IMG/VR virus record: IMGVR_UViG_2585427752_000010
Reading direction: 5' to 3' (one strand)
DNA: 19,561 nt
Origin: a virus
Lineage: Duplodnaviria > Heunggongvirae > Uroviricota > Caudoviricetes
The notes beneath the pieces are model-generated. The model saw nothing but the letters and a program-made list of their open reading frames with translations, was not told where the DNA came from and did no database searches. Shown one piece after another: positions 2,640-19,561 of this stretch (positions within the stretch are counted from its first letter, which is position 1; every line of letters begins with the position of its first letter). The position numbers and the translations under genes are program-made.

Positions 2640-3070
2640 TGGAAAAGAAAAACCGCCCATTACAGGCGGCTAATTCAGATATTCGCGTATCTGATGTTAC
2701 GCCCCTGACAAAATCCCTTCAAGCACCAAAGCGCACACCGAAAAAGCATCGTGCCAGAGTCTATATGCTGCGTACTGGTATAGAGGGATGGACAGAAAAT
2801 GACATTCTTCGCTACTGCCGTCTGTCTTCTGGTCGTAACTATGCAACAGAGTTAGAACGCCAGCTTGGAATCACTCTGGAGCGTATCGACGAAAAGAATC
2901 CTGATGGTATCGGAACACACCTTCGCTACCGTTTCTCCTGCCGTGGTGATGTTCTGAAAGTGATCACTCATATTAACCATCTTGCGAACATAAATGATCA
3001 CAACGGACTTTCTCAGCAGGAAATTGCCGACATTCTGAAACTCTACCCGGACGCGTTTAACGCCGCCTAA
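2639..3070 (+). CDS. hypothetical protein
   Basis: 143-aa ORF translationally coupled to alpA; basic N-terminus; no recognisable motif. Confidence 0.7.
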   Translation: MEKKNRPLQAANSDIRVSDVTPLTKSLQAPKRTPKKHRARVYMLRTGIEGWTENDILRYCRLSSGRNYATELERQLGITLERIDEKNPDGIGTHLRYRFSCRGDVLKVITHINHLANINDHNGLSQQEIADILKLYPDAFNAA

Positions 3071-3082
3071 CGGAGACTGAAA

Positions 3083-3916: not shown

Positions 3917-4091
3917 GCCAACAGGAACACCACAACCACAAAAACGCTACAAAGATGCCCACGGAGCACTCGTTACTGTCGAAAGCGTGTCTCACAACCG
4001 AGTGACGTTTTATCGCGACGGGTATCAATCGCCATGCGTACAACCGCTGGCGCGTTTCATGAAGGAGTTCGCGGAGGTTAACAAATGCTAA
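3909..4091 (+). CDS. small hypothetical protein (60 aa)
   Basis: ATG at 3909 overlaps the stop of the upstream gene; sequence MSKPTGTPQPQKRYKDAHGALVTVESVSHNRVTFYRDGYQSPCVQP... looks protein-like. The ORF track's 3822 start lies inside the upstream gene and was not used. Confidence 0.5.
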   Translation: MSKPTGTPQPQKRYKDAHGALVTVESVSHNRVTFYRDGYQSPCVQPLARFMKEFAEVNKC

Positions 4092-4522
4092 CCGTCCAGA
4101 AGAAGACATTTTCACTGGCTGGTATGTCGCCAAAATCCAGCAATATGACGGCAAAGTCAGGCATTAATACAGCAGATACAAGCAAAGTTTATCATTTGCT
4201 GGTGGTCGGAACGGATGCCTTAACCATATCAGAAATCTCGGGCGATGATATTAGCATTGAGAAGGTCAGCGGCTGCGCCAGAGAATTTCTGGTCGTAGAT
4301 GACCTGTTCTGCTCGCGTAGTGACTCCACAAAAACATTCGTCCACGCGCGTGACGTTAACGAAATGAGCGCGATGTACTGTGCTTCTGGTTCTTCCAATA
4401 GTGAGTTTTCGGAGTCCATAAAAAAGAGCTTGCCGTTATGCGGCAACACGGTTTATGGTTATAAGGCACCTCATAAAACGGGTGCCGGGTTTCGCAGCCC
4501 GGAAATGTACGAGGCGACACAT

Positions 4523-4544
4523 GACGCGCCGAGCGTCTTTTTTT
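4523..4544 (+). terminator. putative intrinsic terminator inside the ambiguous 4085-4746 region
   Basis: GACGC-gccga-GCGTC hairpin followed by TTTTTTT. Confidence 0.35.
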
Positions 4545-4746
4545 GTGCCGTTAGCCAGACTCACACTTTTTTCAGTGATGTGGTTATAATCCGCGTCGCT
4601 TGCAAAATTATGGTGGGCTGGACAGGGCAGCCGAAAGGCTGGCCGGTTTCCTTGTACGCCGGTACTGCGAACTCTGTTCAGTCCACCACCAGCGAGTTTC
4701 GCAGCTCCGGTGGTGGGAAGAATTCCCAGTACAAGGAGGCTGCCAC

Positions 4747-4941
4747 ATGCTGGCTACTACCCCTACCCAAAAACCGCAATTTATCTGGATTATCGCCGCA
4801 GTTCGCCGCGATTGCCCGACAATTACCGCCAAAATTCATCATATTGCTGCCGAGTCTGAACGCGATGCTCGCCGTTCTCTGGTGCGCGATCACGTCTGCT
4901 TTTTTGCTGGTCGTATCCGCATGGAGGTGGCACATGATTAA
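4747..4941 (+). CDS. small hypothetical protein (64 aa)
   Basis: ATG at 4747 preceded by AGGAGG with 7-nt spacing; product MLATTPTQKPQFIWIIAAVRRD... is charged and protein-like; stop overlaps the next start. Confidence 0.5.
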   Translation: MLATTPTQKPQFIWIIAAVRRDCPTITAKIHHIAAESERDARRSLVRDHVCFFAGRIRMEVAHD

Positions 4942-5152
4942 AACCTACGATGTGCATATGGATCCCCTCGAACGCACAAGCCAGATCATCACACTGACAG
5001 AAGTGATTAATGACATTCTGGTGAGCAACTCTCCCTCACGAGACGAAAAACTGAAGGCGTTACTCGCGATATTGGATCTCGCCGTTCGTGACGTTCATTT
5101 CCTGCTGGAAGGTGGACAAATGCCATGCAAAACGGGGGCAACCAATGAATAA
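4934..5152 (+). CDS. small hypothetical protein (72 aa)
   Basis: ATG at 4934 preceded by GGAGG; product MIKTYDVHMDPLERTSQIITLTEV... is protein-like; it is the in-frame 3' portion of the long 4085..5152 ORF. Confidence 0.55.
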   Translation: MIKTYDVHMDPLERTSQIITLTEVINDILVSNSPSRDEKLKALLAILDLAVRDVHFLLEGGQMPCKTGATNE

Positions 5153-5339
5153 CTCAATTAATGCCCCTCGCCTTACGTCCGCACTTCAATTAATCGAGCA
5201 AGCAGCGGCTGTCCTGGTTGCTGTCAGTCTTTCGGCTGAAGAAATGGACGCTGCTGATGTCGTGGATGCGATTAAAGCGTGCTCATCTTTGGTTAACGAT
5301 GCCCGTGCAGAGCTGGTAATTCTTGGTGGTGAAAAATGA
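5145..5339 (+). CDS. small hypothetical protein (64 aa)
   Basis: ATG at 5145 in frame within the 5088 ORF; overlaps the upstream stop; downstream stop overlaps the next start (ATGA). Confidence 0.5.
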   Translation: MNNSINAPRLTSALQLIEQAAAVLVAVSLSAEEMDAADVVDAIKACSSLVNDARAELVILGGEK

Positions 5340-5599
5340 ATATCAACTTAATTTATCGTCATCCGTGTGAGCTGGAAATTGAATCATTGCTGGGGCGCGA
5401 AGAGCCATATCCAGACACATTCACTCCCGCAGATTGCGCGACTGAACGGCTTACCAGAGCGCGCACAGGTCTGGTTCATGTGATGAATGAGATTGTTCCC
5501 TCGGTGGGAGGGGAACAGGCGACAGTAATCAATAGCTGGCTACAAAAAGTTACCTCCCTGATAGATATCGGTTTAATCGATGTGGAGAGTGCGAAATGA
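5336..5599 (+). CDS. small hypothetical protein (87 aa)
   Basis: ORF with ATGA start/stop overlap on both sides, indicating translational coupling in an operon. Confidence 0.65.
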   Translation: MNINLIYRHPCELEIESLLGREEPYPDTFTPADCATERLTRARTGLVHVMNEIVPSVGGEQATVINSWLQKVTSLIDIGLIDVESAK

Positions 5600-5817
5600 C
5601 CAACATCCAGCTCATTGAAGCGCAATGTCGCATCGAACAGGTTCAGACTGTTTTAGGGTTCTGGCTTGAAGGGGCCAGCCCCAGCAACAGAGACAAGTTA
5701 ATGATTGGCGCGGTTATGTCACTGCTCAATGGCGTACCAGAAGCTATTCAGGAAGCGGACGAATTGTTGGGCAAATATGAGTTACAGAATCATTCAGGCG
5801 AGGCGAAACATGAATAA
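5596..5817 (+). CDS. small hypothetical protein (73 aa)
   Basis: ORF coupled to its neighbours by overlapping stop/start codons. Confidence 0.65.
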   Translation: MTNIQLIEAQCRIEQVQTVLGFWLEGASPSNRDKLMIGAVMSLLNGVPEAIQEADELLGKYELQNHSGEAKHE

Positions 5818-6412
5818 TTTCTTAACTTTCCATGCAGAAGCAACGCCTGACGGCGTAAACATCATGTACCGCAGCAACGATGGCATGACAGAACGCGTTG
5901 AGGCCATCTCATATATTGATGCCGTAAATCGTCTGGATGCCGGGGATTATGACGATAAACCAGATGAAGGTATGTCAATACATCTCGCTATTGCCGATGG
6001 CGGCAACCAGGGATATTTCGATTACACATCACAGCATAACGTCATTATGTGGAGATGGCTGATCGCAACAGTATTCATGCTGGAAATGAGAGAGGAAAAC
6101 GGCACTGTCAGCATCATTGATGATACTGGCAATCCTTCCGAAGTGGCTGTTTATTCCAACGGCATCGTCGCCATGCCGCTGTATCCAGTAGCAGAGCGCC
6201 TCGCTATGGCAAACAACATTGAGGGCGCGATGATAGAACGTTTTGGCATCGAGTCTGGCACAGAACGCGCCATCATTTTCTACAGAGCCATGATGGATGT
6301 GGAACAAGGAGCACTGACTCCATTTGGGCGTGAAACGCTTGCTGAACTTCACAACAGCTTTATAGCTGAACTGAATGAAAACGGCATGCCAGCGGAACCA
6401 GTGACGCACTGA
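5810..6412 (+). CDS. hypothetical protein (200 aa)
   Basis: ATG at 5810 overlaps the upstream stop; acidic product MNNFLTFHAEATPDGVNIMY...; the ORF track's earlier 5705 start would overlap the upstream gene extensively. Confidence 0.7.
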   Translation: MNNFLTFHAEATPDGVNIMYRSNDGMTERVEAISYIDAVNRLDAGDYDDKPDEGMSIHLAIADGGNQGYFDYTSQHNVIMWRWLIATVFMLEMREENGTVSIIDDTGNPSEVAVYSNGIVAMPLYPVAERLAMANNIEGAMIERFGIESGTERAIIFYRAMMDVEQGALTPFGRETLAELHNSFIAELNENGMPAEPVTH

Positions 6413-6422
6413 GGATGGAGCC

Positions 6423-6764
6423 ATGATTACTAAAAATTTCCGACTGAATGCGCTGGCAAATAAGTATGCGTCGGCACTGTATAACCACATTACCTCCACC
6501 AGCGGCGGGGACTATTTCATGGTTGATGCGGACGGCGAGGCCGTCCGTGTGGAAATCGTCAATGGAGTAAAAGGCGTTCGCAGCCTGATCGATAGCTACA
6601 CACTGGCAGCCATGAAAGTGTTCTACCCGCAGTGGGAAACCGTGGGGATCGAGCTTCTTGAACGTTGCGTCACTAAGGACGGATTGACTGACGTCGGGCG
6701 TGAGATATGGCAAAGCATGGTTAATGACATGGGCGCAACTGTAGCGGGAGGTTCTCATGCGTGA
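6423..6764 (+). CDS. hypothetical protein (113 aa)
   Basis: ATG at 6423 with GAGGA RBS; stop overlaps the next start. Confidence 0.7.
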   Translation: MITKNFRLNALANKYASALYNHITSTSGGDYFMVDADGEAVRVEIVNGVKGVRSLIDSYTLAAMKVFYPQWETVGIELLERCVTKDGLTDVGREIWQSMVNDMGATVAGGSHA

Positions 6765-7128
6765 AAATGCAGAAATGGCGCTTAGCTCCGCAATCGGAGA
6801 GCAGGTGGCAAAGATTGCTGGTGCTGTGTGGATTCATAACCTTCATTCTACTGGTGAAGAGAAAATGGCAATTCAGACGCCAGAGGGACGCACCATTACT
6901 ACATCTCTGAAGCCGTCAGATGTTTGTGATCTGATTTGCGCATTCATGTACCCAGCAATGAGGACTGTCCACGGCGATAAGTGGAAACTTGCGACAACCG
7001 CTGAATTTGATATGTGGCTAAACAATGATGGCATGCTGACTGATTACGGAATAACCAAGTGGCAGATGCTGGTTAGCCATATCGCAAACGCTATAGACCA
7101 CGTGGGGTACGGTGATGCGAAACATTGA
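6757..7128 (+). CDS. hypothetical protein (123 aa)
   Basis: ATG at 6757 with GGAGG RBS; 3' end overlaps the primase start. Confidence 0.7.
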   Translation: MRENAEMALSSAIGEQVAKIAGAVWIHNLHSTGEEKMAIQTPEGRTITTSLKPSDVCDLICAFMYPAMRTVHGDKWKLATTAEFDMWLNNDGMLTDYGITKWQMLVSHIANAIDHVGYGDAKH

Positions 7129-9466
7129 TCTTATCCGTCAGGTTATCAGTGCGTCTGAAAACAACTGGCCTCATGTGCTGGGCTGCCTGAACATAAATGT
7201 CCCTGACTCTCCGCGCCGTCATGCTCCCTGCCCTGCATGTGGGGGCAAAGATCGATTCCGGTTCGATGACAACGGGCGCGGTAGCTTCATCTGTAATCAG
7301 TGCGGCGCTGGTGATGGGCTGGATTTAATTAAACGCGTAAATAACTGCGACACAACAGAGGCGGCGCTTCTTGCCGCTGATGTTCTGGGTATTGATTACC
7401 GGACAACGGAAACACCAGAAGCCACCAGCCAGAAACGGGAACAACTGGAAACCGAGCGCCAGCGACGCGAACAGGAGCGCCTGAAAAGGGCAGAGAAGGA
7501 CGAACAACAAAGACGGGATACGTTTTCCCGTCAGTTTGATGACATGCGCAGAAAGGCTGTAAACGGCAAATCTGATTATCTGGTTGCGAAAGGGGTAGGT
7601 GATTTTACATTCCCCGTGTTGCCCGATGGATCTCTGTTGCTGGCGCTGGTGGATAAATCCGGCGCAGTCACAGCAGCACAGACTATTACCTCACATGGTG
7701 AAAAAAGACTCCTGACAGGTTCGGCAAAGCGGGGGGCATATCACGCCATAAACGCACAGAAACGACCTCACAGCATCATAATTGCTGAGGGGGTGGCTAC
7801 CGCCCTGTCGTGCCATTTAATTCGCCCTGACGCAATGACAGTGGCAGCAATCGACGCTGGCAACCTGTTGCCAGTAGCGGAAGTCATGCGCAGAACATAT
7901 CCGCAGGCACAAATAATCATTGCTGCAGATAACGATCACCAGCAAGGAGACTCAGAAAGTGGAGGGATCAACACGGGGAAAGATGCCGCAGAGAGGGCCG
8001 CTATTTCCGTAGCTGGCAGGGTGTCTCTGCCACCGACTGACTATAAAGCCGACTGGAACGACTATCACCAACAACACGGGCTGGCGGCAGCCACAGCAGC
8101 ATTTAAAGATTCGATGTACCAGCCACGGGGGAAAGGGGCGCAGGTGAAAAATCACAAACAGTCAGTCGGGGCGCTGAATGAGATCAGTTCTGGCGAGGTG
8201 TTAAGCGATGATGAAATTGCTGTCCTCGAAGAAATCAACCGGACGTTTACGCATGTCACCATCGGCGGGAAACACAAGGTGGGGTCGCTAAAGCCTTCTC
8301 AAACCGGCGGTGTATCGCACGTTTTCGAGGATTTATCACAATTTCAGCATTATTTTCATCATAAACCGAGAGTCGCCAGAAAGCTGGCGGGATCGGCGTG
8401 GCTGTCATGGAGTGGGAAGAACTACAAGCCAGGAGGCGTAGGATTTTATCCAGTACCAGACAAATGCCCTGACGATGTTTTTAATCTGTATGAGGGGCTG
8501 GCACTGGAACCAATTGAAGGAGATTGCACGGTATACCTTAATCACCTGTTGCAGGTTGTCTGTGCCGGTAATGAAGAGGCATACCAATATCTTATCCAGT
8601 GGATGGCGCACATTATCCAAAAGCCTGATGAAAAACCGTCCGTGGCAATCGTGATGAAATCTGTCCCGGGCACAGGGAAAGGCACAACGGTTAAACCGCT
8701 GCTGCAAATACTGGGGCAGTACGCCGCCCACATTAACGGGGCGGGACATATTTCAGGGCGCTTCAATTCAATACTTGCTAACAAGCTACTGGTATTTGCT
8801 GACGAAGTGACGATCCACAAGCCGTCTGAAGCTGACAGACTTAAAGCGATTATTAGCGAACCGACGTTTAACCTTGAGCGCAAGGGAATTGATGCTGAAC
8901 CAATGCCGAATTTTGCCCGGTTGATATTTGCCAGTAACAGCACACAGGTATTACAGGCAGGGATAAGAGAGCGTCGCTATCTCGTGCTTGAGCCATCTCC
9001 TGAAAAAGCACAGAGCCGGGAGTATTTTGATCGGCTGTACAGTTGGCTTAATGATGGCGGTGCCGCAAAGTTGCTTTGGCATCTTAAAGGGGTGGATCTC
9101 TCAGGTTTTGACCCTCAACGAGCGCCACAGACCGATGCCTTACGTGAAGAAATCTTGCTGGGGCTGTCTGGCGTTGAATTGTTTCTTTATGGCGAGCTAA
9201 TCAATGAACCTCCGTTTAATGGCGAAGTCCGTTTGTTTGCAAAGGATATGGTTAGTCGGTTTGTAGCGTGGTCGCTTGAGCGTGGGGAAAAGCTTAAAGA
9301 ACCAGCTGCCAGATCACTACTGGGTAAATCACTTGCACAAATGGGGCTGGTGAAGCATGGAAGACCAGACCGAGGGAATGGCGTGTTCTACGAACTACCA
9401 GAGGTCGGAGTTCTACAGGCTGCGTTTGCCCGTCTGATCGGTATGGGGGGTTATGATGTTTTTTAA
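7112..9466 (+). CDS. P4-alpha-like bifunctional primase-helicase
   Basis: 784 aa; N-terminal zinc ribbon CPACGG...CNQCG; TOPRIM-like motifs IIIAEGVATA and IIAADNDH; C-terminal P-loop NTPase region with Walker A-like PGTGKGTT and Walker B-like LLVFADEV. Start may be GTG 7112 or ATG 7115. Confidence 0.9.
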   Translation: MMRNIDLIRQVISASENNWPHVLGCLNINVPDSPRRHAPCPACGGKDRFRFDDNGRGSFICNQCGAGDGLDLIKRVNNCDTTEAALLAADVLGIDYRTTETPEATSQKREQLETERQRREQERLKRAEKDEQQRRDTFSRQFDDMRRKAVNGKSDYLVAKGVGDFTFPVLPDGSLLLALVDKSGAVTAAQTITSHGEKRLLTGSAKRGAYHAINAQKRPHSIIIAEGVATALSCHLIRPDAMTVAAIDAGNLLPVAEVMRRTYPQAQIIIAADNDHQQGDSESGGINTGKDAAERAAISVAGRVSLPPTDYKADWNDYHQQHGLAAATAAFKDSMYQPRGKGAQVKNHKQSVGALNEISSGEVLSDDEIAVLEEINRTFTHVTIGGKHKVGSLKPSQTGGVSHVFEDLSQFQHYFHHKPRVARKLAGSAWLSWSGKNYKPGGVGFYPVPDKCPDDVFNLYEGLALEPIEGDCTVYLNHLLQVVCAGNEEAYQYLIQWMAHIIQKPDEKPSVAIVMKSVPGTGKGTTVKPLLQILGQYAAHINGAGHISGRFNSILANKLLVFADEVTIHKPSEADRLKAIISEPTFNLERKGIDAEPMPNFARLIFASNSTQVLQAGIRERRYLVLEPSPEKAQSREYFDRLYSWLNDGGAAKLLWHLKGVDLSGFDPQRAPQTDALREEILLGLSGVELFLYGELINEPPFNGEVRLFAKDMVSRFVAWSLERGEKLKEPAARSLLGKSLAQMGLVKHGRPDRGNGVFYELPEVGVLQAAFARLIGMGGYDVF

Positions 9467-10709: not shown

Positions 10710-11074
10710 CAAAAACAGCGATTTTCTTTATAAGGTATGTTTTGCTCATCTGGCAGACGGAGGTATTCGCTGCGGTTTGGCACATAGCCCAGAACAGCAA
10801 AGAGTTTTACGAGACTTTTGTAAAATCCAGTGTACAAGGGCGTGACGTTTTTGAAGGAGAGACCTACGAAATTTTCGTAGTTCAAAAAATAGCCTCTGAG
10901 ATGTTGTTATGCCTGTTCAGCAAACCATCCGCATAGCTGATCGCGAATCAAATTACCAATGGAGCCAGAAGCAAGGGCAGAACTGGAAAGCGCCTGCCGT
11001 GAAGAGTAATGCGACATCGTAAATATAGTTTTTAGAGTCCATAAAAAAACTGTCAAAACCTGACATACAGAACG

Positions 11075-11108
11075 ATGCCACCAGCTACTGAGCGGTGGCA
11101 TTTTTTTG
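11075..11108 (+). terminator. rho-independent terminator
   Basis: ATGCCACC / GGTGGCAT perfect 8-bp stem with 11-nt loop, followed by TTTTTTT. Confidence 0.65.
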
Positions 11109-11169
11109 TGCTATTTGTTTCATATTTTGCAATTACGATGATGAATATTGCGATTTGTGAAACTATAAT

Positions 11170-11189
11170 AACTGTTGTTTTATACAGTT
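11170..11189 (+). promoter_or_regulatory. LexA-box-like site (CTGT-N8-ACAG) between a TATAAT element and the operon's first RBS
   Basis: AACTGTTGTTTTATACAGTT: CTGT at 11172-11175, 8-nt AT-rich spacer, ACAG at 11184-11187; a consensus -10 TATAAT lies at 11164-11169 and the RBS AAGGGGG at 11192-11198. Confidence 0.4.
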
Positions 11190-11202
11190 CTAAGGGGGCG
11201 TT

Positions 11203-11364
11203 ATGGCTATTTCAGTAAAGCCGGTATTGATAAGTGAGAAGCAAATGGAAGCGATAAAGAAAATTCAGGAAGAGCAGCGTAAAAAATCAGGAATTGGAGT
11301 AGCGCCAACTCTGCATGAAATTGCTCGAGGGTTAATAGATAAGGCGCTGGCAGGCTGTATGTGA
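11203..11364 (+). CDS. small DNA-binding-like protein (possible ribbon-helix-helix), 53 aa
   Basis: Not in the ORF track (below its size cutoff). ATG at 11203 with strong RBS TAAGGGGGCG; product MAISVKPVLISEKQMEAIKKIQEEQRKKSGIGVAPTLHEIARGLIDKALAGCM has a strand-helix-helix-like pattern. Confidence 0.45.
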   Translation: MAISVKPVLISEKQMEAIKKIQEEQRKKSGIGVAPTLHEIARGLIDKALAGCM

Positions 11365-11380
11365 AAATGGATGGCATCGC

Positions 11381-11842
11381 ATGGAACTAAAATTTATTGA
11401 TAACCCTGTGCGATTACAGGCCTTTCTTAACGATCCTGGCAATACCGAAAATATTGTTGAGCCGGGGCACACGTACTACATCAAGCCTGATGCGGTATAT
11501 CTCGGCATCTACGAAGGATTGGTGCTGGCTGGCGTTCATGAAGTGCGTAACTTCTGGCATAGCATTGTTGAATGCCATGCGGTGTACGACCCCGGATTCC
11601 GTGGTGAATATGCACTGCAAGGGCATCGATTATTCTGCAAATGGCTTCTCGAAAACTCACCATTCCTTAACAGCATCACTATGGTTCCTGACACCACGAA
11701 ATACGGACGGGCAATTATCCGTTTGCTTGGCGCTACCCGTGTTGGTCACCTTGATGATGCTTATATCAGATGTGGTAAACCCGTCGGCGTAACGCTTTAT
11801 CAGTTAACTCGGCAACAATATAAGGAATTCAGCGAATGTTAA
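11381..11842 (+). CDS. hypothetical protein (153 aa), second gene of the operon
   Basis: ORF starting 17 nt after the small gene; stop overlaps the next start (ATGTTAA). Confidence 0.75.
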   Translation: MELKFIDNPVRLQAFLNDPGNTENIVEPGHTYYIKPDAVYLGIYEGLVLAGVHEVRNFWHSIVECHAVYDPGFRGEYALQGHRLFCKWLLENSPFLNSITMVPDTTKYGRAIIRLLGATRVGHLDDAYIRCGKPVGVTLYQLTRQQYKEFSEC

Positions 11843-12513
11843 TTACCCATATAGCTCATAAACATCTCAATCGTGCCGTATACGAAAAAGGCGGTGATGG
11901 TGGTGCCTCTAAAGCTCAGGCGAAGGCCCAGCAGCAGGCAATTGATTTGCAGCGCGAGCAGTGGAATACGGTGATGAATAATCTCAAGCCGTATGCAGAA
12001 GTCGGATTGCCTGCTTTACAACAACTACAAGGACTGATGACTCTGGAAGGGCAGAATAAAGCCGCGAATGATTTCTTTGGTTCTGGTTTATATAAAACAC
12101 AGGCAGATCAGGCCCGTTATCAGAACCTTGTCTCAGCAGAAGCTACCGGGGGGCTTGGCTCAACAGCTACCAGTAACCAGTTATCTTCCATTGCGCCCAT
12201 GCTTTATAACAATTGGCTTAGTGGGCAAATGCAAAATTATGGAAACCTGCTAAATGTCGGGATGAATGCGGCATCAGGACAGGCAACGGCAGGGCAAAAC
12301 TACGCCAATAATACCGGACAACTCTTGCAGGGGCTTGGCGCTATTCGTGCAGGTCAGGCGCAGCAGCCATCCAGTCTTGCGCGTGGTATTGGTGGGGCAG
12401 CATCAGGCGCTTTAGCGGGTGCGCAACTTGGTTCCGTTGTTCCTGGAATAGGTACTGCGGCAGGCGCTATTGGTGGTGGGCTTATTGGTCTTGTTGGGGG
12501 GCTTGGATTCTAA
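11836..12513 (+). CDS. Gly/Ala/Gln-rich protein with C-terminal glycine-zipper hydrophobic segment (225 aa)
   Basis: AAGGAA RBS; low-complexity Q/A/G/N-rich body; C-terminus GIGGAASGALAGAQLGSVVPGIGTAAGAIGGGLIGLVGGLGF has repeated GxxxG spacing typical of membrane-inserting glycine zippers. Confidence 0.75.
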   Translation: MLITHIAHKHLNRAVYEKGGDGGASKAQAKAQQQAIDLQREQWNTVMNNLKPYAEVGLPALQQLQGLMTLEGQNKAANDFFGSGLYKTQADQARYQNLVSAEATGGLGSTATSNQLSSIAPMLYNNWLSGQMQNYGNLLNVGMNAASGQATAGQNYANNTGQLLQGLGAIRAGQAQQPSSLARGIGGAASGALAGAQLGSVVPGIGTAAGAIGGGLIGLVGGLGF

Positions 12514-13826
12514 TGGCGACATGGCAACTTGGCGGGCTGCCTAGCATGGCACCGCAAAATGATAATGCTCCTCGTTCTTCCGTTCCTCAGCCTGTGCAGT
12601 ATCAGCAGCAGCCAAACGTAGGTTTAATGGCGCTACAGGGGCTAAGAGGCGTTGCTGAGATTAATCAGCAGGCGCAAATTTCCCAGCAGCTAAAAGAATA
12701 TCAGGCACGGTTGGGTAGTGCGGTAGCTAATAATGATCGTGTTGGCGTGCAGAAGTTAATGGCCCAGTATCCCCAGTTTATGGCTGATTCTCAAAAACAG
12801 ATGGGATTCATTGATGCTGAGCAAAATCGGCAGACCGCTGACGCTGCCATGAATCTGCGTCTTGCGTCACAAACTGGAGATCCACTGACCATGCAGAAGG
12901 CCATTCAGCAGGCAAATCCAGTATTACAGCGATTTGGTCTTCCTGCTGAAGAGGTTTATCAGTCTTGGCAGAATGACCCACAGGAATTCAACAGAATCAC
13001 TGACCTCATCCACCTCCATGCTGATCCAAATAGTTACTTTAGTGTTCAAGAGAAGCAGCAAGGGCAGAGTATTGCACAGCAGAACGCAGATACATCTGCA
13101 TATAATGCTCAGGTTAATGCGGAACAGGGTAATCGGCGTCTCGATATGGAGCAGTTCAAAGCCCTATCCGATAACCAGCTACGCACGAGAGAAATGGTTC
13201 TGAAAGCACGACTTGGACGTGCTCAAAATGACATCGAGAGAGACAAGCTCAATGCTGAACTGAGCAAGGTACAGCAGGCGAAAGTGGAGAAGATGAACGA
13301 TAAAATTAATACTGTTGTAGGTAACATCGACTCCTTGAACTCTGCGCTTGAAGTGGGTCATGAACTGGCGGGAATTGTAGGGAAACATCCTTCGGCCGTT
13401 ACCCGTTCGCAGAACTATAACCCCCTGACGCTGGGGTTTGGATTCCTTCCTGATGTAGCAGAAGACACACGAAGCCTACGCGCCAAAGCTGATGAATACA
13501 ACCTAAAGGTTATTCTGCCTAGCCTCAAAGGGACTTTTGGCTCTAACCCAACCGAAGGGGAAAGGGCTGCCCTTATGCAATCTCAAAATGGCATTAAGTC
13601 AGCAACCAGCAATGAGGCATTTTTGCGAGAGTTGAATAAAGCGCAGGACGTAATTATTCGAATGCAGAAACGACAGATTGCCGGGCTCGGTATTCCTGTA
13701 ACCAAATCTAAGGACGAAGAAACTGATACCAAAATGCTGTTGCAGGATCCTTCTCTGGTTAAGGATTATGTGACCGCACATGGCTATCTGCCGGAAAGTT
13801 ACTATCAGGCAAAACTTAAGGGATAG
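12513..13826 (+). CDS. Gln-rich, probably coiled-coil protein (437 aa)
   Basis: ATG overlaps the upstream stop (TAATG); Q-rich N-terminal half and charged, heptad-like central region. Confidence 0.8.
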   Translation: MATWQLGGLPSMAPQNDNAPRSSVPQPVQYQQQPNVGLMALQGLRGVAEINQQAQISQQLKEYQARLGSAVANNDRVGVQKLMAQYPQFMADSQKQMGFIDAEQNRQTADAAMNLRLASQTGDPLTMQKAIQQANPVLQRFGLPAEEVYQSWQNDPQEFNRITDLIHLHADPNSYFSVQEKQQGQSIAQQNADTSAYNAQVNAEQGNRRLDMEQFKALSDNQLRTREMVLKARLGRAQNDIERDKLNAELSKVQQAKVEKMNDKINTVVGNIDSLNSALEVGHELAGIVGKHPSAVTRSQNYNPLTLGFGFLPDVAEDTRSLRAKADEYNLKVILPSLKGTFGSNPTEGERAALMQSQNGIKSATSNEAFLRELNKAQDVIIRMQKRQIAGLGIPVTKSKDEETDTKMLLQDPSLVKDYVTAHGYLPESYYQAKLKG

Positions 13827-13828
13827 CA

Positions 13829-16549
13829 ATGATGGCACAACTGACAGAAAAACAGAAAGCCTATTCCCGTCATCTCGATGAAAAATATGGTTTCCCATCA
13901 GGGACGATGGAAACATTAGTTGGCAATGAATCTAGTGGTAACGGAAGTGCCGAGTCACCGAAAGGAGCTAGAGGATTTGCTCAACTGATGCCCTCAGTAA
14001 TGAGTGATGCTGGTTATCGTGGAACAGATCCGCGCTCACTGCCATTTGAAAAGCAAATGGATATCGCAGCAAACCATCTCAATAAAGGAATGAAGCGATT
14101 TGGTGATATAGGTATGGCATTGGCTGGGTATAATTCTGGCTATGCTCGTATTAATGCCGTAAGAAACGGTAAATCTACACTGCCAGATGAAACGGCTAAT
14201 TACGTAAGTAAATTTGCAGATGCCGGAATAATCCCTGATGACAGTGAAATCTTGCAGTTTGCACAAACCAGTCAACATCGCAATCTTCAGCAGCCTGACT
14301 ACTCAGAGCTTGATAAAGAAATCTCTCAGGTGGGAGATATTTCTGCATGGGAAGCAAAACGTCAGCAATTTAAGAACATAGAAGCAGGACTACCAACAGC
14401 CAGTTCATGGGAGCAGAAAAGAGCTCAGTTTCTCGCCGATGAAAATGCCGGGGAACCGCAGCAGCAAGTAGCCAAGTCTAACCTTAATCCTGAGATGGAA
14501 TATCTTTCGCCAGGACTGAAAGCTGCGCCAGAGCAGATGGCCAGAGGGATTGCTAATATACCGTTTGATGTAATGGACGCAGGCGTGGGGGTAGTCAATG
14601 CGGCGCAATCAGCCGGAGCATGGGCAGCTCAGAAGCTTGGTGTGGGTGATGGCACATACACGCCCATATCACCTGTCTTTCGCCCAGTAGACCAACCTAC
14701 AGATCCATACGCGCAGGCTGGTGAGCAGCTAGCACCTTACCTTATTACAGGATTAGGTGCAGGAAAGGCAGCTACCGCAGCTTCTTCAGTTGCCAACGCT
14801 CCACGTGCTGAACGTGCGGCCACAAAGGTGGCTAGTATGTTGGCAGAAAACCTGCCAGGTACATTGGTGAACGCCCAAAAGAACGGGCAGATCAGCCCAG
14901 AAGACCTAGCAAAAGAGACAGGTATTGGCCTAGCAGGATCGCTAGGAGCACGCGCTTTAATAAAGAGCGGACAGACAGCCAGTGACGTAATGCGAGATGT
15001 ATTGCGGAGTAATACAAATCAATCAGGCCATGTGTTAGGGGCAGCAAATACTCTGGAAACCGCCAATGATGTATCGAAAGCAGCGCGTTCTGCCGTAGGC
15101 CGAGAGCATATCGCATCGCAGGCATCAAACGTCAGAGATGATGTCGCTAAGGCGGCGAAAATTACTGGTATTAATATCAACACCCTGACGCCTGGAATGC
15201 GCTCAGGTAGTCGTGGAATTGCCCAAGCAGAAGGTGTTCTGGCATCAACTCCTGGGAATGTTCAGGATGCTCACCTTACGGCCTTCAATGAAATATCCTC
15301 AAAGTTGAATAAGCAGTTGTCTGATTTCGGTGCTGAGTCTGGAAGCGCATCAGAAAAAAGCGCAGCAATTAAAGAGCGCATCATCGCGAGCCTCAGTGAT
15401 ATGAAAACAGCAGAGAATATGGCATGGGCAGAACTGCGAAGCACGATGCCACGCGAAAGGATGAAAATGAGTAATGGGATGGCTGTCGTCCAAGCAGAAA
15501 AAGCAGCCAATGTTCCACTCAGCCCGGAGATGAAACAGTTTCAGGCTGCCAACAACCAAGGTGGCGGCATAACCTTCGACGGGATGAAGGCATGGCGTGC
15601 TAAGTTTGCTGATGCTGAACAAGCAAACACCCGGGCAGGTAAGGCCAATGCCGCCCGGATTGCCGGAGAAATGCGCAGAGCTATCACTGATGACATGCGC
15701 ATCATGGCTGAAAAAGGAAACTTCCTCACAGAATGGCAGAAAGCTAACGATCTCTCTAAAAGTTACATTATCGCCAAACAAAATGCCGAATCTGTTTTTG
15801 GTCGAGATCTCGCATCAGACGCTATGGTAAGAAAAGGTGCCGATACGCTTAAGGCATCCGCAAACACTGGAACGGGAGCTTTTCACCGTCTTATCTCCGC
15901 GCTGCCGGAAGCAGAACGCCAACCAGCAATAGCATCTATTCTTCAGCATGCTGTGGCGCAGGGAGAGAAGGGAGGAATCGGTGAAGAATCTGGTATCCAG
16001 TATTTTGCCAAGCTCATGACCCAGCAGAATGTAAACGCCATCAGTCGTCATGCGCCAGATCTCGGTAGAATGATGAAAGAGTTCGGTGTACTCGCTAAAG
16101 CCAGCACCAGACCGCAGCGATACGTAGAGCGCACGGGAAGAACAACTGAGGCTCTCAAAACGCTCGATTCAGGCCTTCCAAAGATCGTCGGCGTGATTAT
16201 GAACGGAGTTCAACAGTCAGGTGCGATCGCTGGAGGCTTTGGCGGTGGTGTAATTGGTTCGATTAGTGGTTTGGTTGCTGGTGGCGCGCTGAGAAATACT
16301 GTGGCTAAGATTGGGGCGACAAGAAGTGGTAGATATGCGATAGAGAAAGCCGTTCAGGAAGCTACAAAAGCAGTGCGCGCAGGGGCATCACCAGCAGCGA
16401 TCGCCGCAGCAGAGAAACGATTTTCGGCCAATAAAATTGCCATGAAAGCAATTCGTGATGCCGTTGGGGCTGAAGAATTCGTGAAACTGACAAGGGCCGG
16501 GATTGTAGCTACCCTCAGTGGCATGAAAGATGTTAGCGAATGGGAATAG
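13829..16549 (+). CDS. large protein with N-terminal lytic transglycosylase (SLT) domain and C-terminal Gly-rich hydrophobic segment (906 aa)
   Basis: N-terminal NESSGNGSAESPKGARGFAQLMP fits the SLT catalytic ES...GA.G..QLMP pattern and ALAGYNSGYARI fits the AYN.G motif; long Ala-rich body; near the C-terminus GGFGGGVIGSISGLVAGGAL. Confidence 0.85.
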   Translation: MMAQLTEKQKAYSRHLDEKYGFPSGTMETLVGNESSGNGSAESPKGARGFAQLMPSVMSDAGYRGTDPRSLPFEKQMDIAANHLNKGMKRFGDIGMALAGYNSGYARINAVRNGKSTLPDETANYVSKFADAGIIPDDSEILQFAQTSQHRNLQQPDYSELDKEISQVGDISAWEAKRQQFKNIEAGLPTASSWEQKRAQFLADENAGEPQQQVAKSNLNPEMEYLSPGLKAAPEQMARGIANIPFDVMDAGVGVVNAAQSAGAWAAQKLGVGDGTYTPISPVFRPVDQPTDPYAQAGEQLAPYLITGLGAGKAATAASSVANAPRAERAATKVASMLAENLPGTLVNAQKNGQISPEDLAKETGIGLAGSLGARALIKSGQTASDVMRDVLRSNTNQSGHVLGAANTLETANDVSKAARSAVGREHIASQASNVRDDVAKAAKITGININTLTPGMRSGSRGIAQAEGVLASTPGNVQDAHLTAFNEISSKLNKQLSDFGAESGSASEKSAAIKERIIASLSDMKTAENMAWAELRSTMPRERMKMSNGMAVVQAEKAANVPLSPEMKQFQAANNQGGGITFDGMKAWRAKFADAEQANTRAGKANAARIAGEMRRAITDDMRIMAEKGNFLTEWQKANDLSKSYIIAKQNAESVFGRDLASDAMVRKGADTLKASANTGTGAFHRLISALPEAERQPAIASILQHAVAQGEKGGIGEESGIQYFAKLMTQQNVNAISRHAPDLGRMMKEFGVLAKASTRPQRYVERTGRTTEALKTLDSGLPKIVGVIMNGVQQSGAIAGGFGGGVIGSISGLVAGGALRNTVAKIGATRSGRYAIEKAVQEATKAVRAGASPAAIAAAEKRFSANKIAMKAIRDAVGAEEFVKLTRAGIVATLSGMKDVSEWE

Positions 16550-16699
16550 ACGCTCTAACTAACAAAACCATAATAGCCAAGGACGGCATACTGATATTGA
16601 GCCAACTATCAAAATTCCATATCACATTACGGGCCTGTGGCTTACATTCGCTTACAGTGATGATAATTTATAACCACGCAATTCTTAGGTGAGATTATC

Positions 16700-17398
16700 A
16701 TGATTAAAAATCTTCTTTTAATATTATCCCTGTCATTATTGGCTGGATGCGTACAAAAACCGTTAGTAACGGTCAATGCTTTATCTTCCGGGCAATCTGT
16801 CGGTAAGAAGTTCTTGATCATCCCCGCAAGCCAAGAACTTTGGAACACCAAACAGATTGAATACACTCAAATAGCTACGGTAGTAGCCGCCAGTTTATCA
16901 AGCCAAGGATATACACAAGTTAAAGATGAAAAATTGGCTGACCAGGTAATTCTCTTGAACTTTTTGAGAAGCGGGGCCATTTCAAATACTCGTAATGTAA
17001 CCATCCCAATATACGGGCAAACTGGTGTGAGCTCAGCAACAACGTACGGAAACTCGAACACCACGTTCAATAGTTATGGTGGTGGCTACGGTACAGCTAA
17101 TATCACTGGAACGGCAACAACAGTTTATACGCCTACTTATGGAATTACTGGCGCGTATAACACAACTGTGACGGACACGTTCTACGGCGCAGGGGTGATA
17201 CTCCAGTCGTTTGATGCCAAGGCTTATCTCAATAATAGGCAGATTAATATGTTATGGAAAGTTGGTAGCTCAGTCGTCTCGCAACAGTCTGATGGAATTG
17301 CTGATTACAAGGGGTTGGCGAGAATAGCCGCTAGCTATGCCGGGAAAAATACAGAAGGTGATATAACTTTTAATGTTGACCCTAAAGCACCAAATTAA
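16700..17398 (+). CDS. lipoprotein, Thr/Gly/Tyr-rich (232 aa)
   Basis: Signal peptide MIKNLLLILSLSLLAGC with lipobox LAGC; AGGTGA RBS; mature part rich in T/G/Y/N repeats; lower GC than the upstream operon. Confidence 0.8.
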   Translation: MIKNLLLILSLSLLAGCVQKPLVTVNALSSGQSVGKKFLIIPASQELWNTKQIEYTQIATVVAASLSSQGYTQVKDEKLADQVILLNFLRSGAISNTRNVTIPIYGQTGVSSATTYGNSNTTFNSYGGGYGTANITGTATTVYTPTYGITGAYNTTVTDTFYGAGVILQSFDAKAYLNNRQINMLWKVGSSVVSQQSDGIADYKGLARIAASYAGKNTEGDITFNVDPKAPN

Positions 17399-17405
17399 CT
17401 AATAA

Positions 17406-17427
17406 GCCCGGTACGCCGGGCATTTAT
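17406..17427 (+). terminator. weak terminator-like hairpin after the lipoprotein gene
   Basis: GCCCGG-tacg-CCGGGC perfect 6-bp stem followed by a T-poor tail (ATTTAT). Confidence 0.35.
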
Positions 17428-17562
17428 GCCCCTATTATTCATGAATCGCTTTTTCTAGAAGGTATGCGACAAACGTTAAGTGACATTGCCTACACATTCG
17501 GGGCGGGATTTCAAATCCGCTCCCAGTTGATGGGGTCGTTACAGTACGCGCATATCCGCTTT

Positions 17563-17633
17563 ATGTGAAACAGGAAGATTTTTCTGATATCACTGCCACA
17601 GCAAAACACCAATTTCGTGACCAGTACGCGCAC
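17563..17633. repeat. copy A of a ~70-bp repeat family (copies B at 17838-17867 and C at 19473-19543)
   Basis: A and C align over ~70 bp (ATGTGA.A..GGA.G.TTTTTC.GA.ATCACT ... CAATTTC..GA.CA.TACGCGC) with small indels; B is a shortened copy (CTGATAT-TTTGCGACAAGTACGCGCGCG); a fourth core CAGTACGCGC lies at 17542-17551. Confidence 0.6.
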
Positions 17634-17895
17634 GATGGAGGGGAGTACCATAAAACTGTTCTCTACATAAGTCAGAGTGGTGGTGATGTGTTGATTATCG
17701 GCGTATATGCGCACAGGACGCGCTATGACGATGTTTTATGCGGGTACACCAATCACATGTATCTGGTGTGATAAATCGCGTTACATGACCTCTCATGTTG
17801 TGCTGGTGGTTATCACGACGTTCTGAATCTGGCCTTTGCCTGATATTTTGCGACAAGTACGCGCGCGTAGCATCGACAGCATACACATTGGATAT

Positions 17896-18117
17896 TCATT
17901 TTGTGACCAATGCGATAAGTAGCGGGATAAGAATTGATAAAATCAACAGGCCGATGATCCACTTTTGATTTTCACTGGCCTTATCTCTATTTTCATCAAT
18001 CTTATCAATAATTCGACGCTCCAAGCCGTGCATATCACCGCGAATGGCAATCATCTCATTGCGAACATCCGAGAAGTGGTTGGCTTGATGTTCAATGTGT
18101 GGCGTTCTGCCTTTCAT
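17896..18117 (-). CDS. small tail-anchored membrane protein (XhlA/holin-like topology, tentative), 73 aa
   Basis: ATG at 18117 (minus strand) with GAGGA RBS; charged N-terminal region followed by a single C-terminal hydrophobic helix WIIGLLILSILIPLLIALV. Confidence 0.6.
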   Translation of the reverse strand: MKGRTPHIEHQANHFSDVRNEMIAIRGDMHGLERRIIDKIDENRDKASENQKWIIGLLILSILIPLLIALVTK

Positions 18118-18196
18118 GCCTGATCCTCACCCATCGTCACCACCTGCTGGTGTATAAAGGTATTGGCGCAAGCGGCTTTCCTATGGGCACTCATGT

Positions 18197-18652
18197 TTAT
18201 ACGCTGACCTTACAATCAATCACCGCTTTTAACTTTTCAGCATTGCTTCCCTGACGCTTCCACGCGCTGTAAATATCTTTATCCCACGCTTTACCAGCTT
18301 TTGTTTGATAGCCTGCTTCATTGATCCGTTCAGCTATCACACGCCCATTATCAAATCCCTGTTGGATGGTATCGGCAATGATCTTTATAACTGCCGTTTC
18401 GTTATATGGCTTTGGTGGGATGTTCGGCTTTCCGGCAATAAGCGACGCAGCGGCTTTTTCCATGCGCTCCACCAGCCCAAGCATTCGTGAATCAATAGAC
18501 TTTTCCGGCTGTCTCAGCTTCATGCGAATCGCATCAACAAGCCAGGAGGTTTTATCCCCTCCAGAAGCGAGAACAGACCGATTAAACTCATCCTGCAATT
18601 CAGATGGGATGCGGAACGCGACCAGATTAGATTTGCTCATTGCAAAGACCAT
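18197..18652 (-). CDS. RHH-like DNA-binding protein (151 aa, or 147 aa from the alternative start at 18640)
   Basis: N-terminus SNLVAFRIPSELQDEFNRSVLASGGDKTSWLVDAIRMKL has a strand-helix-helix pattern; no clear SD for either candidate start. Confidence 0.65.
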   Translation of the reverse strand: MVFAMSKSNLVAFRIPSELQDEFNRSVLASGGDKTSWLVDAIRMKLRQPEKSIDSRMLGLVERMEKAAASLIAGKPNIPPKPYNETAVIKIIADTIQQGFDNGRVIAERINEAGYQTKAGKAWDKDIYSAWKRQGSNAEKLKAVIDCKVSV

Positions 18653-18671
18653 ATCAGTGAGTAATATCCAT

Positions 18672-18701
18672 ACAGTATACCACTGTATAACACTGTTATA
18701 C
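18672..18701. promoter_or_regulatory. paired palindromes upstream of the minus-strand RHH-like gene (putative operator)
   Basis: ACAGT-atacc-ACTGT (18672-18686) overlapping a 17-bp palindrome GTATAACA-C-TGTTATAC (18685-18701). Confidence 0.45.
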
Positions 18702-18753
18702 GCTCAAATATCAGCCAGAAAATAACGGACCAATCACAAAGCTATCGCTGTGT

Positions 18754-18875
18754 TGTTGGTTCAGAGCTGGGCTGTGTTGGTTCAAAATGAGTTGATGTTG
18801 GTTCAATATTTCAGAAAAAACACAATAAAAACAACGATCTTTACAAATTGAACCAACTGAACCAACTGAACCAAC
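18754..18875. repeat. phased iteron array: 3 direct TGTTGGTTCA repeats at 21-bp spacing plus 3 tandem inverted TGAACCAAC repeats
   Basis: TGTTGGTTCA at 18754, 18775 and 18796; AT-rich spacer; TGAACCAAC x3 in tandem at 18849-18875, ending 17 nt before a TATAAT (18893-18898) upstream of the PerC-like gene. Confidence 0.65.
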
Positions 18876-18911
18876 ACCTTTTTGCTTATCTATATAATCT
18901 GAGAGGCAGAA

Positions 18912-19199
18912 ATGATAAGGGACAGGAAAGCTGAAGAGCTGGAGTCAAAAGGGCTATACCGGAGAGCTGCCGCACGATGGGCAGAAGTCATGATGCTGGC
19001 AGATGGCGATAAAGAACGTGAACATGCAGCAAACAGACGTTCTGAATGTATCCGTAAGGCGGCACGCCCACCAGCAACTACAGACAGATTCGGAGATTTA
19101 AGACAGGCAGTTAAGCGGACTCATTCGGCTCTTGGTATGGATGAGGAAGCGAGAGGGTACTTCAGGCGTTATCGCGATAAAGATTGCCAGAGACAGTAA
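18912..19199 (+). CDS. PerC-family transcriptional regulator-like protein (95 aa)
   Basis: GAGAGG RBS; N-terminus MIRDRKAEELESKGLYRRAAARWAEVM resembles PerC/Pch regulators of E. coli prophage-like elements (recalled, not searched). Confidence 0.6.
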   Translation: MIRDRKAEELESKGLYRRAAARWAEVMMLADGDKEREHAANRRSECIRKAARPPATTDRFGDLRQAVKRTHSALGMDEEARGYFRRYRDKDCQRQ

Positions 19200-19272
19200 T
19201 GCTCTCTCTGTTTTGGCAAATTACCCCTCACTTTGAAGGGATCGGAGCTATAAAAATGGTTTTAGGTACATT

Positions 19273-19372
19273 CCTCAAATTGAGGATTGTGGGAAAACCA
19301 ATGGGTTAGGCTTTTCCCCCAATGGGGGTTTTCGAAAGAATCAATGGGTTAGTCCATCGTGCAAATTTGCAC
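19273..19372. repeat. cluster of palindromes and direct repeats downstream of the PerC-like gene
   Basis: CCTCAA-A-TTGAGG (19273-19285); CCAATGGGTTAGG-like direct repeats starting at 19298, 19319 and 19341 (21-22 bp phase); perfect 14-bp palindrome GTGCAAATTTGCAC (19359-19372). Confidence 0.55.
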
Positions 19373-19561
19373 CATGCCAGCCAACGCAATTTCTCGTTGG
19401 CGAAAATATCAGGTATTTACTGAACGAACGGTCTACCAGTCTGTTCAGTTACCAGTTGCATATGGCTGTTTCATGTGAGAACGGAGGTTTTTTCGGACAT
19501 CACTATTGGGTACAGCAATTTCACGAGCAATACGCGCGCGCAGGACAACAAGCCTGAACAT

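Follow-up and report, generated by a model that had tools for sequence, protein, structure and literature searches.

Two minus-strand genes at the far end of a phage-inducible chromosomal island (PICI) from Escherichia coli, one for a putative DNA-binding protein of 147 amino acids (aa) and the other for a 73-aa membrane protein, appear to serve two separate functions while sharing one transcription unit, a reading that we favor with modest confidence. We analyzed both genes in a stretch of 19,561 nucleotides, IMG/VR virus record IMGVR_UViG_2585427752_000010, referred to here as the window. The two do not form a conserved pair of regulator and effector.

By gene order and close sequence identity, the window is an EcCIMP1-type PICI. 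It corresponds to an integrative island of ~19 kb, near-identical copies of which are found in many E. coli chromosomes between yicC and dinD, and blastn aligned it with EcCIMP1 of E. coli MP1 at 96% nucleotide (nt) identity over positions 2629 to 8136 and at 98% over 10801 to 17876. Excision and transfer of EcCIMP1 by the P22-like phage Kapi1 have been demonstrated experimentally (Pick, Stadel & Raivio, ISME J 2025; PMC11773190). EcCIMP1 differs from the window in sitting at tRNA-Thr, the near-identical sibling of the window in E. coli UMNK88 being located between yicC and dinD, and in carrying an unrelated segment with alpA_1 exactly where the window has both genes and their operator. Homology to EcCIMP1 stops at 17876, 20 nt beyond the stop codon of the small gene, and restarts at 18754, and tblastn of the two proteins against EcCIMP1 gave no match for either; the pair and its operator therefore form an exchangeable cassette. 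The alpA_1 gene that occupies this island end in EcCIMP1 has been shown to act as excisionase for the helper phage, and neither of the two minus-strand genes is described in that study (PMC11773190).

A putative regulator with a ribbon-helix-helix-like N terminus

The original prediction for this stretch had placed a minus-strand pair at 17896 to 18652, and both open reading frames (ORFs) are present there, at 17896 to 18117 (73 aa) and 18197 to 18652 (151 aa at its longest). The conserved start of the larger gene, found in all homologues and in RefSeq, is the ATG at 18640 (MSKSN...). Judged by their substitution patterns, both ORFs are real genes under purifying selection. Differences between the larger gene and its Salmonella homologue are distributed 15/10/72 over the three codon positions, and 355 homologues of the 147-aa protein with 64 to 78% identity are spread across Enterobacterales. 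Of 5426 complete E. coli genomes, 361 contain the gene, which PGAP/RefSeq annotates as "hypothetical protein." The smaller gene, likewise annotated as hypothetical, occurs in 169 of these genomes in two allele groups that differ by an in-frame 21-nt indel. Its core differs from a prophage allele by 4/1/13 nt over the codon positions, with 12 synonymous versus 6 nonsynonymous codon changes, its first 16 codons are highly diverged (1 synonymous versus 12 nonsynonymous), and its alleles are set apart by indels of 7 and 5 codons that keep the frame.

The 147-aa protein comprises a ribbon-helix-helix (RHH)-like segment at residues ~5 to 41, a helix at 49 to 68, a Pro-rich linker and, at 81 to 145, a C-terminal domain of four helices that is of helix-turn-helix (HTH)-like type and very conserved. 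Its N terminus matched phrog_30270 (E 2e-4, residues 5 to 50) and YlcI/YnfO_N (E 0.054), and hhalign against 14 Arc/Mnt proteins aligned it in the expected register at E 4.8e-4 and a probability of 32%; one database source calls a homologue "Arc-like DNA binding domain protein." The strand of RHH proteins pairs only in the dimer. As a monomer, the AlphaFold2 (AF2) model has an extended segment up to about residue 12 followed by helices 13 to 25 and 30 to 41 (pLDDT ~74), which is the strand-helix-helix order of RHH proteins. The upstream protein had been described as RHH-like from the start, and the sub-threshold profiles and the secondary structure are in line with this; Pfam returned no family for the 147-aa protein and no RHH family at threshold.

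The resemblance to RHH repressors such as CopG, Arc and Mnt extends to the DNA, in that a short β-strand would serve as recognition element for 7-bp units, direct or inverted, spaced by about one helical turn over the protein's own promoter. The omega protein of pSM19035 is likewise an RHH repressor that reads repeated heptads. The window protein differs from these repressors by its extra conserved C-terminal HTH-like domain, attached through the Pro-rich linker, and by the existence of two operator classes that are distinct in sequence and in orientation.

Operator classes, promoter and predicted autoregulation

Upstream of the regulator gene lie two inverted heptads, 10 bp apart center to center and 45 to 61 nt ahead of the conserved start codon. 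The palindromic operator claimed for this pair of genes is there, GTATAAC-ACT-GTTATAC occurring only once in the window, but the greater part of the 259 bp that separate the regulator gene from perC is not operator; iterons (see below) are located there. Sequences upstream of the regulator gene were compared across 46 loci, which represent ~25 genera. Inverted heptads of the form GTATAAC-N3-GTTATAC (class A) were found at 27 loci, including the window, with the first heptad at −58 to −63; this heptad is exact in 27/27, and the second differs at one base in a single locus (L094). Among the 17 distinct class A sequences, 13 of 14 heptad columns never change, and the spacer is free to vary. The remaining 19 loci carry direct heptads, GTCTTAC-N3-GTCTTAC (class B), the first at −56 to −60, with one heptad reading GTCTAAC in L085 and L086. 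The match between operator and strand has no exceptions in the 46 loci: S(N/T)L(V/I)AFR is found with class A operators and SLSVTFR with those of class B. When aligned on Arc, the two differing strand residues presumably sit at positions that face DNA in Arc. An exact-pattern operator scan of the viral-contig collection gave 48 occurrences, 47 of them directly upstream of a regulator homologue.

Directly downstream of the operator is an element that probably acts as the extended −10 promoter of the regulator gene. It was detected only through comparison of relatives, most of the 46 loci keeping TGnTATAAT, TGGTATACT or TGGTAAAAT at this position; the TG or the hexamer departs from this pattern in Salmonella, Serratia fonticola, Buttiauxella and a few others. 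A scan of positions 17300 to 19561 for consensus sigma-70 promoters, which requires a −35 element, found none. Because the heptads lie at a fixed distance and abut the extended −10 element, and because heptad class tracks the recognition strand, we infer that the 147-aa protein represses its own promoter through the heptads. Short repeated sites over its own promoter, as expected of an RHH repressor, are thus present on comparative evidence.

A tree of the C-terminal domain, itself weak, does not separate the operator classes cleanly; it hints at more than one operator-class switch, or at recombination, without giving proof. A search for a second copy of the operator elsewhere in the island, which would have suited a master repressor of the alpA/ant operon, found none, and the palindromes at 18670 to 18701, read by eye against the LexA box CTGT-N8-ACAG, did not fit it. 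The C-terminal HTH-like domain, which is nearly invariant, may have a second partner, one candidate being the GTTGGTTCA iterons next door, which vary just as little.

The 73-aa membrane protein and its family

Residues 54 to 72 of the smaller protein (IIGLLILSILIPLLIALVT) have a mean Kyte-Doolittle value of 2.95 and are followed only by "K," and AF2 with the family alignment modeled one unbroken helix from residue 6 to 72 (pLDDT 88.9). The single C-terminal transmembrane (TM) helix that had been proposed is confirmed by these data. From the C-terminal hydrophobic stretch and the uninterrupted helix, the protein is predicted to be tail-anchored in the inner membrane with ~50 cytoplasmic residues. 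A consensus scan of the spacer between the genes and of the small-gene flanks found no promoter-like or terminator-like site, and the small gene is therefore likely to be read through from the regulator promoter.

The family is small: only 39 relatives turned up when 1.84 billion representative proteins were searched exhaustively with a profile. Most relatives are 100 to 130 aa long and consist of a variable N terminus, a poly-Gly linker, a helix and an ...ALVTK anchor; short forms of 72 to 79 aa recur in other contexts, including beside an intact copy of the four-cysteine partner described below. The window protein itself matched phrog_6324 at E 3.2e-11. Matches to Pfam XhlA at E ≤ 1, nearly full-length and sub-threshold, were obtained with 20 of 24 family members (best E 1e-5), and six of ten relatives that were rescanned individually matched XhlA at 13.5 to 20.3 bits, the gathering threshold being 34.7. 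PHROG families labeled "hemolysin" were matched by 19/24 members, "holin" by 16/24 and phrog_6324 by 22/24.

The homology search against XhlA and holin families that went with the TM prediction was less productive for the window protein, which had no Pfam match at E ≤ 1, XhlA (PF10779) included, and matched a "holin" family only through phrog_689 at E 0.0037. Like XhlA of Bacillus PBSX, it is small and combines a coiled-coil-like helix at the N terminus with a single TM helix at the C terminus, and family members align to model positions 5 to 62 of 67. It differs in that scores stay below the gathering threshold, the gene lies outside a lysis cassette and the host is Gram negative. We therefore describe the 73-aa protein as XhlA-like in shape and possibly a remote relative, and not as a member by the Pfam criterion. 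Nor does it look like a classical holin, since only "K" extends past the TM helix, no endolysin gene is adjacent and the phrog_689 match gets no better than E 0.0037. A match to SLATT_1 (E 0.026) was set aside as an artifact of TM or coiled-coil sequence.

The Pfam label itself should not be carried over to the 73-aa protein: "haemolysin XhlA" (PF10779) conflates the small Bacillus PBSX membrane protein with an unrelated large Xenorhabdus hemolysin, and prophage proteins with an XhlA domain are consequently annotated as virulence factors (reflected in PMC4553209). In Mannheimia lambdoid phages, an XhlA-domain protein with one TM helix is encoded next to cI and not in the lysis cassette (PMC4553209).

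The small gene has a GC content of 41.9%, compared with 47.7% for the window. A copy in an E. coli P22-like prophage shares 81% nt identity with the window, and this homology is confined to 17898 to 18155, which includes the last 38 nt of the spacer. The gene itself, judged by the limits of this homology, is therefore the unit of exchange and an accessory gene of the moron type. It is a discrete exchanged unit of differing composition, as morons are; the promoter and terminator of its own that morons carry were not seen in the scan, which was crude and makes this weak evidence.

Absence of conserved pairing and a variable cargo slot

None of 47 loci encoding the 147-aa protein in other genera has an XhlA-like ORF, and the 147-aa protein is not encoded nearby in any of 67 prophage loci where the small gene has distant relatives. 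Among the operator-bearing contigs of the viral collection, 4 of 48 carry the small gene. In E. coli, about half of the regulator-bearing elements lack it and have a gene for an "Abi family protein" in its place. In other genera the regulator is followed by an RnlA-type RNase toxin, a Fic, Schlafen/AlbA_2, Sel1-repeat or Abi_2 protein, or a trypsin-like peptidase. The position downstream of the regulator is a variable cargo slot, which relatives fill with anti-phage genes.

The usual upstream neighbor of the small gene, at ~46 of the 67 prophage loci, is instead a soluble protein of ~120 aa with two CxxC pairs (phrog_4293). Examples of this four-cysteine protein are encoded at 5520 to 5885 in locus L009, 5541 to 5897 in L015, 5481 to 5855 in L045 and 5418 to 5789 in L074, and as gp24 of Salmonella phage SPN3UB (L075, 4535 to 4909). 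The four-cysteine protein together with the XhlA-like anchor makes up an uncharacterized two-gene prophage module.

Relatives at the positions of known exclusion genes

True P22-like prophages show the order mnt (Arc family), four-cysteine protein, XhlA-like protein and another small protein, and this set converges on gene 16, beside arc-ant-tailspike. P22 carries orf59a and sieA in that interval (PMC10883804). The resemblance to P22 immI (mnt-orf59a-sieA, between gene 16 and gene 9) lies in an RHH repressor gene followed by small genes on the same strand, one of them for an inner-membrane protein, with the set converging on the ejection-protein genes 14-7-20-16; in true P22-like E. coli prophages, a close relative of the 73-aa protein occupies the same interval behind a genuine Mnt/Arc-family gene. 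SieA has 162 to 164 aa, is predicted to form three TM helices and bears the motif FxRYPxEAxxFNK, and SieA-type proteins are defined as having ~160 to 200 aa, 3 to 4 TM helices and this motif (PMC10883804). In contrast, the 73-aa protein has one TM helix, no FxRYPxEAxxFNK motif and no sequence relation to SieA; only the genomic position matches. The window regulator, for its part, differs from Mnt in being twice as long, in its C-terminal HTH-like domain and in its operators.

In siphovirus-type prophages (e.g., Salmonella phage SPN3UB), mnt/arc/ant-type genes and lipoprotein genes surround the module, which is placed just ahead of the tape-measure gene. The exclusion moron of HK97, gene 15, is located between the tail assembly chaperone and tape-measure genes (PMC3594210). 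HK97 gp15 is, like the 73-aa protein, a small inner-membrane protein from an add-on gene, and the siphovirus relatives of the small gene stand in the same position. No sequence relation was found between the two; gp15 is YebO-like N-terminally, a region to which that study does not assign the anchor, whereas the 73-aa protein is predicted to be anchored C-terminally. No endolysin or holin gene was found beside the small gene in the window, in SPN3UB, in ST101-KPC2phi6.1, in L125 or in the 12 ORF-mapped loci (L008 to L074), for which some of the neighbors were scanned against families.

Proposed functions and alternative explanations

We propose that the 147-aa protein is an autoregulating DNA-binding protein whose RHH-like dimers would read two heptads one helical turn apart. 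With the heptads abutting the extended −10 element, it would hold down its own production and the production of whatever is transcribed behind it. The 73-aa gene would be mobile cargo, known from P22-like and siphovirus prophages as well, that came to occupy the variable slot behind the regulator and is probably expressed from the regulator promoter, at a low and autoregulated level, in the quiescent island. Its product, a single helix with ~50 cytoplasmic residues able to oligomerize and an inner-membrane anchor, would protect the cell from incoming phage at the inner membrane, either by disturbing the DNA-entry conduit, like P22 SieA and HK97 gp15, or by holin-like premature (abortive) permeabilization. 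Such an anti-phage role is the most likely function of the 73-aa protein, though we put it forward tentatively; it is suggested by position, namely, by relatives at DNA-entry exclusion slots and by the defense genes that fill the same slot in sibling islands.

Several points weigh against this proposal. The anti-phage role is guilt by association, and the known function of XhlA is lysis, not exclusion (PMC5589764). EcCIMP1 lacks both genes, so that its superinfection immunity, which we considered crediting to this pair, cannot come from it. All sequence-profile support for the RHH assignment is below formal thresholds, a Foldseek search of the full 147-aa model against the PDB gave nothing significant, PADLOC and NCBIfam offered no usable family for either protein, and no family of tested function reached threshold for either. 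The operator and the strand codons are only ~90 bp apart, and linkage alone could produce their covariation. Co-transcription is weakly argued, from signals absent in a crude scan. Finally, the window has neither the four-cysteine partner nor the N-terminal extension of most relatives, and its small gene may be a decaying remnant.

Decay would make the 73-aa gene the truncated leftover of a prophage protein of ~110 aa with no present function in the island. Besides the missing extension and partner, which are accompanied in most relatives of 100 to 130 aa by the poly-Gly linker, the strong divergence of the first 16 codons would agree with this. The core of the gene is nevertheless under purifying selection by the codon-position and synonymous counts given above, the ORF is intact and annotated in 169 complete genomes, with the two allele groups differing in frame, the ribosome-binding site is good, and the 72- to 79-aa forms recur elsewhere, including beside an intact partner; a mere passenger is accordingly an unlikely description. 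We are similarly doubtful about an accessory role in lysis, in which the 73-aa protein, like PBSX XhlA, would aid a helper or host holin in speeding up or timing lysis upon induction and the upstream protein would silence it until then. The architecture is the same as that of XhlA, the sub-threshold XhlA, "hemolysin" and "holin" matches are consistent across the family, and an upstream repressor would fit conditional expression. However, neither a holin nor an endolysin gene adjoins the small gene in the window or the inspected loci, the protein is devoid of the charged C-terminal tail typical of holins, and all Pfam scores lie at 13 to 26 bits against a cutoff of 34.7, in a class of coiled-coil-plus-TM sequences that attract spurious matches. 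In P22-like prophages, moreover, the gene sits downstream of mnt, where P22 carries the lysogen-expressed sieA; we take Mnt to be the prophage-expressed maintenance repressor of P22. The holin- or XhlA-type layout named in the original prediction is therefore retained as an architecture with family-wide sub-threshold matches, and its lysis-cassette interpretation is weakened. PBSX XhlA itself is needed together with XhlB and XlyA (PMC5589764), which is in line with an accessory part in lysis.

The same prediction had offered a small membrane toxin with a dedicated regulator. The membrane protein would then be the toxin and the RHH protein its antidote or repressor, and an RHH gene followed by one for a small hydrophobic protein does resemble RHH antitoxin operons, of which an autoregulated promoter is typical; the Abi genes in the relatives' slot would also suit such a module. 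But a dedicated pair should co-occur, and these genes do not (0/47, 0/67 and 4/48 loci; 361 versus 169 E. coli genomes). The regulator is kept at 64 to 78% identity in elements whose downstream genes differ or are missing, the small gene usually neighbors the phrog_4293 protein instead, and no PADLOC or toxin-antitoxin family was matched, all of which leaves this explanation improbable. An abortive-infection module, the third possibility raised, fits in spirit, in that the slot of relatives carries Abi genes, but not as a conserved pair.

A more far-reaching version of the two-function reading, to which we assign little probability, gives both products a specific task. The RHH head of the regulator would set its own level while the HTH head binds the GTTGGTTCA iterons or the primase and silences the origin until a helper phage arrives; the 73-aa protein would be a new minimal superinfection-exclusion factor that jams the inner-membrane end of the P22-type ejection conduit and travels between P22-like phages and their parasites. 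To our knowledge, no repressor-type switch has been described for Gram-negative PICIs, for which only the activator AlpA is known, and this version, if true, would supply one for the family.

Iterons and other features of the island

The features discussed here are collected in Table 1.

Table 1. Features at the distal end of the window
Feature	Position	Strand	Remarks
Exchangeable cassette (both genes and operator)	17877-18753		Replaced in EcCIMP1 by unrelated alpA_1 segment
73-aa tail-anchored membrane-protein gene (anchoring predicted)	17896-18117	-	TM residues 54-72 encoded by 17902-17958
Spacer between genes, 79 nt	18118-18196	-	GAGGA ribosome-binding site at 18124-18128, 6 nt before ATG
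147-aa DNA-binding-type protein gene (putative)	18197-18640	-	ATG at 18640; 151 aa if ATG at 18652
Probable extended −10 element, TGgTATACT	18674-18682	-	Directly downstream of operator; inferred from relatives
Operator, inverted heptads GTATAAC (18685-18691) and GTTATAC (18695-18701)	18685-18701		ACT spacer
Iteron block	18755-18875		Three GTTGGTTCA on + strand (18755-18805), 21-bp spacing (18755, 18776, 18797); three inverted (18849-18875), 9-bp spacing (18849, 18858, 18867)
PerC-family gene	18912-19199	+	Pfam PerC E 2.6e-33; divergent from regulator gene

The six exact copies of the iteron GTTGGTTCA surround an AT-rich stretch and have no further copy in the window. Situated between the regulator gene and perC, the block neighbors the two-gene pair without belonging to it. 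The block adjoins the regulator gene in at least nine genera (E. coli, Salmonella, Serratia, Rosenbergiella, Erwinia, Pantoea, Cedecea, Mixta and Chimaeribacter) and is found, for example, at 15157 to 15277 in L001, 12296 to 12403 in L126 and ~9690 to 9810 in L077. In sibling islands, a second iteron copy is located just past the primase gene; the window does not have it. By this arrangement, the block is probably the replication origin of the island, similar to P4 ori/crr or to that of SaPIs. Rfam and tRNA scans of 16500 to 19561 returned nothing real, the miRNA match being the inverted repeat of the iterons.

The divergent orientation of the PerC-like gene was correctly predicted. The EcCIMP1 counterpart of this gene product, 54% identical to that of the window, has been shown to repress LEE1 (PMC11773190). 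The upstream neighbor of the regulator gene varies by lineage: in E. coli it is the divergent perC, in Klebsiella (L002, 5452 to 6426) an AlpA-family gene and a 67-aa ORF, and in Salmonella (L077, 9223 to 10432) and Erwinia (L079, 9561 to 10432) a conserved ORF of 124 to 129 aa precedes it, no remnant of which was found in the window. A megablast search with the two-gene region gave no match in the phage collection and, among plasmids, only misfiled chromosomes.

The island begins with genes for an integrase, an AlpA-type HTH protein, an antirepressor, Ash and a Zn-ribbon/Toprim/DUF5906 primase-helicase, continues with the P22-type block and ends with the 232-aa lipoprotein gene, the two minus-strand genes and the divergent PerC-family gene. 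Pfam searches of the window ORFs provided the names for Ash, the primase and the DUF2824, gp7, gp20-type and SLT genes, and the names integrase, AlpA-type HTH protein and antirepressor follow what RefSeq gives for the siblings UMNK88 and MP1. The P22-type DUF2824/gp7/gp20/906-aa SLT "DNA transfer" genes, the 232-aa lipoprotein and the distal PerC-family gene are common to the window and EcCIMP1. Positions 11381 to 16549 hold the island's own P22-type virion-internal "ejection" set (DUF2824/gp14-like protein, gp7, gp20-type translocase and the 906-aa SLT-domain gp16-like protein); it is unusual for a satellite to bring its own DNA-delivery proteins. Other versions of the set are present in the sibling islands UMNK88 and 51008369SK1, and relatives have, in the same place, a 989-aa protein without family match (Salmonella), a 903-aa protein with a TMP_3 match (Klebsiella) and a 366-aa E217_GP41-like protein (Erwinia). 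The EcCIMP1 study lists those P22-type genes only as possible packaging genes (PMC11773190).

The 232-aa lipoprotein (16700 to 17398, plus strand) is 99.6% identical in EcCIMP1 and gave a TraT-like match that is weak (E 0.054); TraT itself is a lipoprotein that acts in surface exclusion. On account of this match and of its identity in EcCIMP1, the lipoprotein is a better candidate than the two minus-strand genes for the unexplained superinfection immunity of EcCIMP1. The following ~500 bp (17399 to 17895) contain no convincing ORF, yet are 98% identical to EcCIMP1. A repeat of ~17 to 23 nt occurs there three times (as ATTTCGTGACCAGTACGCGCACG at 17612 and in variant form at 17845 and 17898), and positions 17859 to 17870 form a perfect palindrome of 12 bp, TACGCGCGCGTA; the cassette boundary at 17876 is right beside these repeats and the palindrome, which may be recombination or termination signals. 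Downstream of perC, two tandem repeats of ~40 nt at 19271 to 19352 are close to the expected right end of the island; both contain a small hairpin (CCTCAAATTGAGG and CCCCCAATGGGGG, respectively) and have CAATGGGTTAG as their end.

Implications

Current ideas are not overturned by these findings, whose value lies in annotation. The host element has been published, and RHH autorepressors and small membrane proteins for exclusion or Abi are known kinds of proteins; neither gene family had been characterized before. The operator classes, the swap point and the cargo slot are not described in the EcCIMP1 paper (PMC11773190), which was the source consulted on them rather than a dedicated literature search. 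One end of EcCIMP1-type islands emerges as a swap point at which alternative regulatory cassettes, with either the RHH-HTH gene or alpA_1, are exchanged, followed by a slot that collects anti-phage genes. The two operator classes provide a testable pair for RHH operator specificity, GTATAAC with LVAFR versus GTCTTAC with SVTFR. In prophages, the module of the four-cysteine protein and the XhlA-like protein repeatedly takes the places that belong elsewhere to sieA and HK97 gene 15, known DNA-entry exclusion genes, and in the islands the regulator gene with its heptad operator offers an anchor for mining new defense genes of Enterobacterales.

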